Below are positions 19,601-20,492 of a stretch of 64,000 nucleotides of DNA, in pieces (the first letter of the stretch is position 1; each line of letters begins with the position of its first letter). The notes under the pieces were generated by a model. It worked only from the letters and a program-made list of their open reading frames with translations. It did not search any database and had not been told where the DNA came from. The translations under genes were made by a program, and so were the position numbers. The DNA is taken from positions 1,364,001 to 1,428,000 of the forward strand of contig JANJGN010000121.1 in assembly GCA_026770705.1 (NCBI GenBank). Direction: 5' to 3'. The DNA comes from Isurus oxyrinchus (taxonomy: Eukaryota).

Positions 19601-20335
19601 GCACTGTCGGAGTGTCAGTACTGAGGCAGTGCTGCACTGTCGGAGGGTCAGTACTGAGGGAGTGCTGCACTGTCGGAGGGTCACTACTGAGGGAGTGCTG
19701 CACTGTCGGAGGGTAGGTACTGAGGGAGTGCTTCACTATCGGAGTGTCAGTACTGAGGCAGTGCTGCACTGTCGGAGGGTCAGTAGTGAGGGAGTGCTGC
19801 ACTGTCGGAGGGTCAGTACTGAGGGGGTGCTGCACTGTGCGAGGGTCAGTACTGAGGGGGTGCTGCACTGTCGCATAGTCAATATTCAAGTGGTGCTGCC
19901 TTCTCGAAGAGGCAGTTGTGAGGGAGTGCCGCACTGTCAGAAGCCAGCACTGAGAGTACATTGTAGTGTTCAAGGTGCTGTCTTTCAGAACAGTTGTATA
20001 ATGCTGACCATGTTTACCCTCTCAGGTGGTCGTATAAGATCCCACGGCCACATTTCCAACACTATAGCAGTGACACCCTTCAACAAAAATTTCTTCATTT
20101 GCGTGAGGTTCTTTGGATGTCTTTGAAAAAAAGGGTTAAACGCTCTGAGCCACGACTGACACTAACGAGGCTGCACAATAATTTAACCCTATCAGTGCCA
20201 GTAAATGATGTGAGGATGTCTTCTGTTTCCATTTCTCTGTAGGGTAAACAGAACGTGCTGATTACTGAGCCCCGGAACACAACCAGAGACACAACTAGTG
20301 AGGGGGAGACCCCAGCTCCCCTGGGATCTCTCTGA
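640..20335 (+). CDS. Gene 1 (5'-partial): Siglec-family (sialoadhesin/CD22-like) type I membrane protein with >=16 tandem C2-set Ig domains, TM and a tail truncated by frameshift
   Basis: 16 AG/GT-bounded 282-nt phase1-1 exons encoding (Y/H)APRNLSI...[15 protein letters not shown]...[14 protein letters not shown]...ITVE. TM exon 18418-18514, cytoplasmic exon 19186-19267, last exon from 20243 with in-frame TGA at 20333-20335. The V-set domain is not in the window. Confidence 0.85.
1700..1872 (-). mobile_element. CR1-type LINE 3' end inserted in one intron of the A array
   Basis: taagac repeats + ataggagaaattaggcc...; interrupts the intron sequence seen uninterrupted in sister units. Confidence 0.6.
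2088..2369 (+). CDS. Gene 1 Ig C2 exon A2
   Basis: 282 nt, AG/GT, open frame. Confidence 0.9.
2864..3145 (+). CDS. Gene 1 Ig C2 exon A3
   Basis: 282 nt, AG/GT, open frame. Confidence 0.9.
4137..4418 (+). CDS. Gene 1 Ig C2 exon A4
   Basis: 282 nt, AG/GT, open frame. Confidence 0.9.
5092..5373 (+). CDS. Gene 1 Ig C2 exon A5
   Basis: 282 nt, AG/GT, open frame. Confidence 0.9.
6390..6671 (+). CDS. Gene 1 Ig C2 exon A6
   Basis: 282 nt, AG/GT, open frame. Confidence 0.9.
7429..7710 (+). CDS. Gene 1 Ig C2 exon A7
   Basis: 282 nt, AG/GT, open frame. Confidence 0.9.
8518..8799 (+). CDS. Gene 1 Ig C2 exon A8
   Basis: 282 nt, AG/GT, open frame. Confidence 0.9.
9570..9851 (+). CDS. Gene 1 Ig C2 exon A9
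   Basis: 282 nt, AG/GT, open frame. Confidence 0.9.
10799..11080 (+). CDS. Gene 1 Ig C2 exon A10
   Basis: 282 nt, AG/GT, open frame. Confidence 0.9.
11834..12115 (+). CDS. Gene 1 Ig C2 exon A11
   Basis: 282 nt; the donor runs into an N gap (only the G is visible). Confidence 0.85.
12932..13213 (+). CDS. Gene 1 Ig C2 exon A12
   Basis: 282 nt, AG/GT, open frame. Confidence 0.9.
14343..14624 (+). CDS. Gene 1 Ig C2 exon A13
   Basis: 282 nt, AG/GT, open frame. Confidence 0.9.
15305..15586 (+). CDS. Gene 1 Ig C2 exon A14
   Basis: 282 nt, AG/GT, open frame. Confidence 0.9.
16281..16562 (+). CDS. Gene 1 Ig C2 exon A15 (most diverged copy)
   Basis: 282 nt, AG/GT, open frame. Confidence 0.9.
17320..17601 (+). 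CDS. Gene 1 Ig C2 exon A16 (membrane-proximal)
   Basis: 282 nt, AG/GT, open frame; no CA tract downstream. Confidence 0.9.
18418..18514 (+). CDS. Gene 1 transmembrane exon
   Basis: tttacag|GT AGA GAC...; [33 protein letters not shown]; ends at gtaagt; phase 1-2. Confidence 0.85.
19186..19267 (+). CDS. Gene 1 cytoplasmic exon 1
   Basis: ttgcag|G AGA AAG...[27 protein letters not shown]|gtacag; phase 2-0; paralogous to 46273-46354. Confidence 0.75.
19483..19960 (+). repeat. 33-bp minisatellite within a SINE (paralog at about 46590-46900)
   Basis: cagtactgagggagtgctgcactgtcggagggt units. Confidence 0.92.
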
Positions 20336-20492
20336 AGGTCCAGTGGGAGGCGATGCTGGACATGGGAATCCTGACAAACCCGACGAGATTCTCTACGCCA
20401 ACATCAACTTTTCAAAGCTGCCCAGCGGTGACAGGACTGTGCACAGGAGCGAGGACACGGAATACACACAGATCAGGTTCCAGAAAAACTGA
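20243..20492 (+). CDS. Gene 1 terminal exon; ITIM/ITSM-coding part out of frame (spliced frame stops at 20335)
   Basis: 250 nt to the ancestral stop versus 249 nt in gene 2; ILYANI and TEYTQI lie in the +1 frame. Confidence 0.75.

Follow-up and report, generated by a model that had tools for sequence, protein, structure and literature searches.

An apparent one-base insertion in the last exon of a long-stalk Siglec-like gene of Isurus oxyrinchus would strand both of its tyrosine motifs

Organization of the locus

The window, which is the whole 64,000-nucleotide stretch of Isurus oxyrinchus DNA that was analyzed, contains a tandem of three Siglec-like genes, all on the + strand. Gene 1 enters from the left, with its 5' part and N-terminus outside the window, and comprises a stalk of 16 tandem 282-nt Ig exons of the Ig_3/I-set type (640..17601), a transmembrane (TM) exon (18418..18514, phase 1 to 2), a short cytoplasmic exon (19186..19267, phase 2 to 0), whose end is joined to 20243 in contigs of RNA type, and a last exon that runs for 250 nt (20243..20492) to the old stop at 20490-20492. 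The present coding part of this last exon is 30 codons plus a TGA (20243..20335), and the first AATAAA past the stop, at 21309..21314, is the likely poly(A) signal. Gene 2 is complete (29135..47524) and consists of a signal exon (29135-29180), a V exon (30001-30357), a C2 exon (32792-33079), five 258-nt stalk exons of a second kind, here termed stalk B (34265-41317), a TM exon (45311-45407, phase 1 to 2), a cytoplasmic exon (46273-46354, phase 2 to 0), and a last exon of 249 nt (47276-47524) in which ILYANI and TEYTLI are in frame. Gene 3 (54512..62830) is cut by the end of the window; its V exon lies at 55378-55734, and three of its stalk-B exons are included.

The intron before the TM exon measures 3993 nt in gene 2 versus 816 nt in gene 1, and a GC-richer stretch of the gene 2 intron at 41700-44750 resembles a mobile-element insertion. 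Arrays of a 33-bp repeat occur in introns and intergenic regions (19480-19950, 26263-26590, 30490-31580, 46560-46920, and 55867-56400), one of them inverted relative to the others. Six runs of N are present, at 4429-4614, 12117-12245, 13231-13459, 24301-24522, 26968-27235, and 51317-51754.

All 16 stalk exons of gene 1 are open, phase 1-1, and bounded by GT-AG, the donor of the 11th being cut by an N run after its G. They are 91-99% identical to one another (mean 96%, 120 pairs) and together contain 61 N-glycosylation sequons. Compared with Siglec structures, the stalk domain matched domain 3 of MAG best. The long stalk probably arose by tandem copying of one exon. Its count is to be read as at least 16 domains in the window, because three N runs fall in stalk introns and the repeats may be misassembled.

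Frameshift in the last exon of gene 1

Alignment of the last exons of genes 1 and 2 revealed a single gap, corresponding to a T at 20322 in gene 1, and 15 substitutions. A prior inspection of the letters alone (the sequence-only reading) had proposed a one-base difference between these exons, 250 versus 249 nt to the homologous stop, and the single gap bears this out. Its contrast of tggga in gene 1 with gggg in gene 2 was accurate for the inserted T only, the A at 20326 being a separate, lamniform-typical letter that gives the R-D reading of most lamniform relatives (P-R-D at the site). Since most of the close relatives read P-R-D, one inserted T suffices for gene 1, and the A/G difference is a separate matter. 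The position of the insertion (20322..20322) was assigned using the exon alignment together with the read depths and the toy graph described below.

The exon phases upstream of the last exon are identical in the two genes, which rules out a compensating upstream phase change in gene 1 and confirms the proposal that, through the shared phase-0 acceptor, a TGA in the terminal exon (20333-20335) precedes both motifs. Frame 0 of gene 1 ends ...PAPLGSL* at this codon. The resulting tail has 59 residues and no Tyr; that of gene 2 has 111 residues and two Tyr. The ITIM-type motif ILYANI (20388..20405) and the distal, ITSM-type motif TEYTQI (20457..20474) both lie beyond the TGA, are absent from the translated tail of gene 1, and can still be read in the +1 frame, as had been noted; the distal motif of gene 2 is, however, TEYTLI and not TEYTQI. 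ILYANI fits the wider ITIM consensus. Because it ends in Ile, it falls outside the ITIM signature given in the available part of PMC7226832.

Several routes by which the motifs might be regained were considered and rejected. Six AGs were found as candidate frame-restoring acceptors in gene 1, and none was plausible: all six are purine-rich, with pyrimidine fractions of 0.25-0.45 compared with 0.85 for the real acceptor. Skipping the cytoplasmic exon is no remedy, as the ITIM frame then meets a TGA in the last exon, six codons in. Nor does gene 1 have another copy of its tail exons further on, the cytoplasmic-exon motif being confined to 19186 and 46273. The TM span of gene 1 has no Lys or Arg, and an activating, adaptor-coupled receptor was ruled out on this lack of a charged residue.

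Relationship of gene 1 to genes 2 and 3

Genes 1 and 2 are 98% identical in the TM exon, 95% in the cytoplasmic exon, and 94% in the last exon. Their homology starts just before the TM exon, at 17882 in gene 1 and 44752 in gene 2, and the stalks upstream are unrelated, the domains of gene 1 (stalk A) and gene 2 (stalk B) being barely alignable (local BLOSUM score 40). A duplication unit of about 27 kb (17882-44751 versus 44752-64000) was observed to extend from just before the TM exon across the intergenic sequence and as far as the stalk of the following gene. It is likely that gene 1 or gene 2 is a chimera, with one tail module on unlike ectodomains, and that this module was shared through unequal crossing-over or conversion. 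Judged by their signal, V, and C2 exons, which are 98-100% identical, the true near-twin of gene 2 is gene 3.

The V domain of gene 2 was recognized by the Pfam V-set model, and its best PDB matches were MAG (2e-14), sialoadhesin, Siglec-5, and CD33. A Tyr is aligned with the essential F-strand Arg of MAG, and the essential Arg of Siglecs is thus missing. Gene 3 and seven relatives (P0009, P0013, P0032, P0039, P0048, P0095, and P0103) also have this Tyr, and V domains of this type form a deep subfamily that extends across shark orders, far from the Arg-bearing V domains, suggesting a conserved receptor that may serve another ligand. Relatives with several stalk-A domains mostly carry F-R-[IV]-E in the V domain (P0017, P0021, P0023, P0025, and P0038), and the stalk-A relatives P0032 and P0039 have a V domain of the Tyr type.

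The sequence-only reading had described gene 1 as a decoy beside an inhibitory twin. The twin was not upheld: genes 1 and 2 share only the membrane-and-tail module, and gene 2 was ruled out as the ectodomain twin of gene 1 by its different stalk exon and its separate, Tyr-type V subfamily. Because the stalk and V domain of gene 2 are of a separate kind, a decoy for its ligand is unlikely.

Age of the loss and order of events

The abandoned frame of gene 1 contains no stop and no further indel, and it matches 52 of 55 residues of P0002 of the white shark and 49 of 55 residues of P0006, P0011, and gene 2. This undecayed state points to a recent loss of the tail, and the T would be a recent change that is perhaps polymorphic. 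White and basking shark proteins were the best matches in the last-exon search (15 of 17), and the tails of genes 1 and 2 nest within a lamniform tail clade (support 96/92), both of which point to a lamniform shark as the probable source of the DNA. The earlier proposal that gene 1 derives from an inhibitory ancestor is in keeping with this placement, its tail being a frameshifted ITIM exon among lamniform ITIM-bearing tails.

In P0006 of Cetorhinus, the stalk is joined directly to the TM as in gene 1, 90 of 93 residues are those of exon 16, and the tail is in frame. P0011 of Carcharodon (white shark) has the architecture of gene 1, likewise in frame, with the ITIM Tyr replaced by Cys, and P0017 of Chiloscyllium and P0019 of Heptranchias have 10 counted stalk domains each and keep both motifs. 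As long-stalk relatives in the basking, bamboo, and sevengill sharks keep the ITIM, the long stalk came first and the tail loss after. The notion of a long, non-signalling receptor that arose here accordingly stands in part: the predicted 59-residue tail has no Tyr and the domains number at least 16, but the long stalk predates the loss and is usually ITIM-bearing in relatives.

Tail loss in other sharks

A total of 126 proteins were fetched, of which 45 had a homologous cytoplasmic exon; the fused models P0020 and P0037 were dropped. Stalk domains were counted with a threshold of our own, and all relatives are unverified gene models. None of P0006, P0011, P0017, P0021, P0023, and P0026 reaches 16 counted stalk domains. 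Several models among P0001-P0005 (Carcharodon, Cetorhinus) have tandem-duplicated cytoplasmic and last exons with four tyrosine motifs. Among relatives with several consecutive V-set domains (P0037, P0029, P0008, and P0014), some of which look fused, six Arg motifs were found in P0037 and five in P0029.

Two long-stalk models, P0021 of Stegostoma (8 stalk domains) and P0023 of Rhincodon (6), translate the last exon in the other of the two shifted frames, with scores of 114 and 138, respectively, against shuffle maxima of 46 and 60 (0 of 1000 shuffles reached the score). Their tails have no Tyr, the shifted frame is open in both species, and the shift lies further downstream than that of gene 1. 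The tails of the two form a clade (100/99), and this clade and the other frame argue for a single shared event, independent of that in gene 1. Their V domains group with that of the ITIM-bearing, long-stalk P0017 of Chiloscyllium (SH-aLRT 92, moderate). When the shifted tail was used as query, the whole tail was found only in P0023 and P0021 (two of six matches). An independent frameshift in the same exon, shared by long-stalk models of the whale and zebra sharks, would be the new element of this comparison. P0026 of S. torazame, a 'hypothetical protein', ends at the same ...GSL as gene 1 and shares its stalk-to-TM architecture. The odd ending of P0032 of Rhincodon was rejected as a frameshift, because 47, 716, and 77 of 1000 shuffles reached its frame scores.

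These relatives bear on whether the loss in gene 1 is fixed and adaptive, that is, whether long-stalk receptors of several shark orders converge on non-signalling capture or adhesion of the sialoadhesin type. The shifted, tyrosine-less tails of P0021 and P0023, the ending of P0026, and the Tyr to Cys change in the ITIM of P0011 are what such convergence would produce, and a tail lacking Tyr was counted in 3 of the 8 proteins that have five or more stalk domains versus 2 of the 35 that have fewer (p 0.037, in a test that treats isoforms and paralogs as independent, which they are not). This enrichment for long stalks is weak: p becomes 0.12 when P0021 and P0023 are counted as one event, and the canonical ITIM is kept in 4 of the 8 long-stalk relatives, including the two longest. 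The gene models are unverified throughout, gene 1 shows no decay in its dead frame, and transcripts of an in-frame sister form occur in the same sample. An adaptive, fixed loss was for these reasons considered unlikely. The broader proposition that sharks repeatedly built sialoadhesin-like receptors, by exon amplification followed by frameshift of the same exon, in lamniform, orectolobiform, and perhaps catshark lineages, with the window holding the latest event at a time when an in-frame form is still expressed alongside, is one we put forward with considerable doubt.

RNA and read evidence for the inserted base

Four of the 24 sequencing runs found were examined (X1, X5, X14, and X23), X1 being listed as probable RNA. 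One X1 contig of 107 nt, at depth 83.8, passes from the end of the gene-1-type cytoplasmic exon straight into the last exon, without the 975-nt intron; it is identical to the window over 20241-20321 and stops at 20321. Of the eight X1 pieces listed, seven match the window with no difference, and X1 has no depth in the intron bins at 20060-20214. RNA thus uses the canonical phase-0 junction into the last exon of gene 1.

At 20322, the X1 depth of 156 is divided into 69.2 without the base, 37.1 with G (a portion with a contig end four letters away), and a remainder of 49.7, which was obtained from the listed variants and to which near-end misalignment of an in-frame contig could contribute. By our reading, the portion without the base represents two contigs, of depth 39.4 (G at 20326) and 29.8 (A). 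Gene-1-specific X1 pieces have depths of 54.1, 50.1, and 49.6, comparable to the remainder, and the sum of 49.7 and 29.8 approximates the 83.8 of the junction contig. The X1 data fit two transcripts, one with the T (depth about 50) and an in-frame sister form (about 30) that may be either another allele or a closely related paralog.

In a toy graph with k=31, the junction contig ended at 20321 in all three set-ups with the T form and at 20355 in all three without it. With a third form that shared the upstream sequence, the end moved to 20298 with the T and to 20325 or 20355 without it; the outcome thus varies with the forms assumed. The variants listed for the four runs include no deletion in the C run at 20318-20321, which argues against a homopolymer or doubled-SNP artefact. 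From the contig ends and depths, as opposed to a contig bridging the T, it is very probable that the T of gene 1 is present in RNA. Mapping of RNA over the last exon, which had been advised for 20318-20330, showed the canonical splice into the last exon directly and the T itself only through contig ends and depths. A stop codon in the last exon is expected to escape nonsense-mediated decay (NMD), and the earlier prediction to this effect agrees with X1, in which no sign of NMD was seen, the depth of the T form being not below that of the in-frame sister.

No contig of X5 covers 20322, and X14 contains a single in-frame form with 14 differences in 341 nt (4% diverged). In X23, 34 of 53 reads at the site are without the base, 13 have G, and 6 are unaccounted for. 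The window letter is carried by 0 of 19 X23 reads at 20496, 0 of 32 at 20615, and 0 of 25 at 20661; the X23 reads over the last exon were derived from paralogs. Because the gene-1 haplotype was not seen at the site in X5, X14, or X23, these runs carry no information on fixation, and sample S1, which may be the assembled individual, is silent on the frequency of the T. The depth of X23 over the last exon (window 20150-20520) is 50-70 from 1,904 million letters. With the genome size taken as several gigabases, the X23 and X5 depths suggest many dozens of copies of this exon, an estimate uncalibrated against a single-copy stretch; with so many copies, the X23 coverage of each would be too low for genotyping.

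These data weigh on the possibility that the additional T is an artefact of assembly or consensus calling, in which case gene 1 would be a normal inhibitory receptor with a long stalk. A C run and a G run flank the site, which falls at a CpG in a repetitive region with N gaps; the dead frame is intact, 15 of 15 lamniform proteins are in frame (a biased set, the query having been an in-frame exon), and the base is missing from most of the X23 reads. Against this, the X1 junction contig ends exactly at 20321, the contigs without the base (39.4 and 29.8) are off the depth of the gene-1 haplotype (about 50) that the remainder fits, and the X23 reads come from paralogs, so that an error seems quite improbable. 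Little probability was likewise given to gene 1 being a transcribed, decaying pseudogene, broken upstream or giving no stable protein, with the frameshift as one neutral lesion: its N-terminus lies beyond the window, the last exon appears to exist in many dozens of copies, and human SIGLEC12, 14, and 16 carry segregating null alleles (PMC7379906), but its 16 stalk, TM, and cytoplasmic exons are open with GT-AG boundaries (one donor partly masked) and its transcript is spliced, at a depth at least that of the in-frame sister.

Proposed receptor and implications

Taken together, the T in long-stalk gene 1 is probably real, transcribed, recent, and possibly polymorphic, and it would yield a long-stalk receptor without phosphatase recruitment. 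The single inserted T would end the frame before both tyrosine motifs, and the predicted product is a single-pass receptor whose long, glycosylated stalk would keep the N-terminal domain well away from the membrane. With each Ig domain about 4 nm long, a stalk of at least 16 domains would reach roughly 65 nm. The predicted tail has no docking sites for SHP-1/2 and the TM no charge for an activating adaptor, and by analogy with sialoadhesin such a receptor would bind or tether without braking. It may have originated through ordinary birth-and-death in a large Siglec-like cluster, with the membrane-and-tail module copied between genes.

Elasmobranchs appear to carry a large ITIM-bearing Siglec-like family, in contrast to the statement in PMC7226832, within the available text of which the word 'shark' does not occur, that fish genomes are without inhibitory CD33-related Siglecs. 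Studies of shark Siglec tails were not found in a literature search that reached few subscription journals; Siglecs receive one passing mention in the available part of the whale shark genome publication (PMC8455134), and the part of PMC7765293 that was available gives general background only. If repeated loss is true, sharks would offer natural replicates for the co-evolution of receptor length and lost inhibitory signalling, a pairing seen once, in sialoadhesin, and in gene 1 the before and after states of the tail are one base apart. Should the T prove to be a private allele, the lesion would be an ordinary one for a birth-and-death family.

Comparison with known Siglecs

Sialoadhesin (Siglec-1, CD169) has 17 Ig domains and no ITIM (PMC2695033, available part). 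Gene 1 resembles it in its very long Ig ectodomain, single TM, and short tail without an ITIM. It differs in that its stalk is one MAG-domain-3-like exon repeated at 96% identity and its tail comes from an ITIM/ITSM exon that has been frameshifted but in which both motifs can still be read. Descent from a conserved Siglec-1 gene was not found, on the basis of the tail of gene 1 and of its stalk, a young tandem repeat, and with a tree that contained no mammalian Siglec-1. The sialoadhesin-like architecture that had been ascribed to gene 1 therefore describes its outline (at least 16 stalk domains, no tail tyrosine), and the gene is not sialoadhesin, its tail being of ITIM-exon descent.

Like the CD33-related Siglecs, the genes of the window are clustered and fast-evolving, and the last exon encodes an ITIM and a distal Tyr motif. 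The likeness is one of features, and the V domain of gene 2 is nearest to MAG. Human Siglec clusters show gene conversion, frameshifts, and losses of the essential Arg besides the null alleles mentioned above (PMC7379906, available part). The human CD33-related lesions, such as the SIGLEC12 frameshift rs66949844, SIGLEC16P, and the SIGLEC14 deletion, are described as inactivating, whereas the lesion in gene 1 sits in the terminal exon and would spare the ectodomain and membrane anchor.

In paired Siglecs (Siglec-5/14 and Siglec-11/16), neighbors are partly alike through duplication or conversion (PMC5701461, available part). The stalks of genes 1 and 2 are not near-identical (the V domain of gene 1 lies outside the window), and gene 1, the partner without an ITIM, has no charged TM residue. 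Paired Siglecs share the ectodomain and differ in the tail, whereas genes 1 and 2 share the TM and tail (94-98%) and differ in the ectodomain. The stalk domain of gene 1, together with its TM, cytoplasmic, and last exons, is found in the elasmobranch models P0006, P0011, P0017, P0023, P0021, and P0026.
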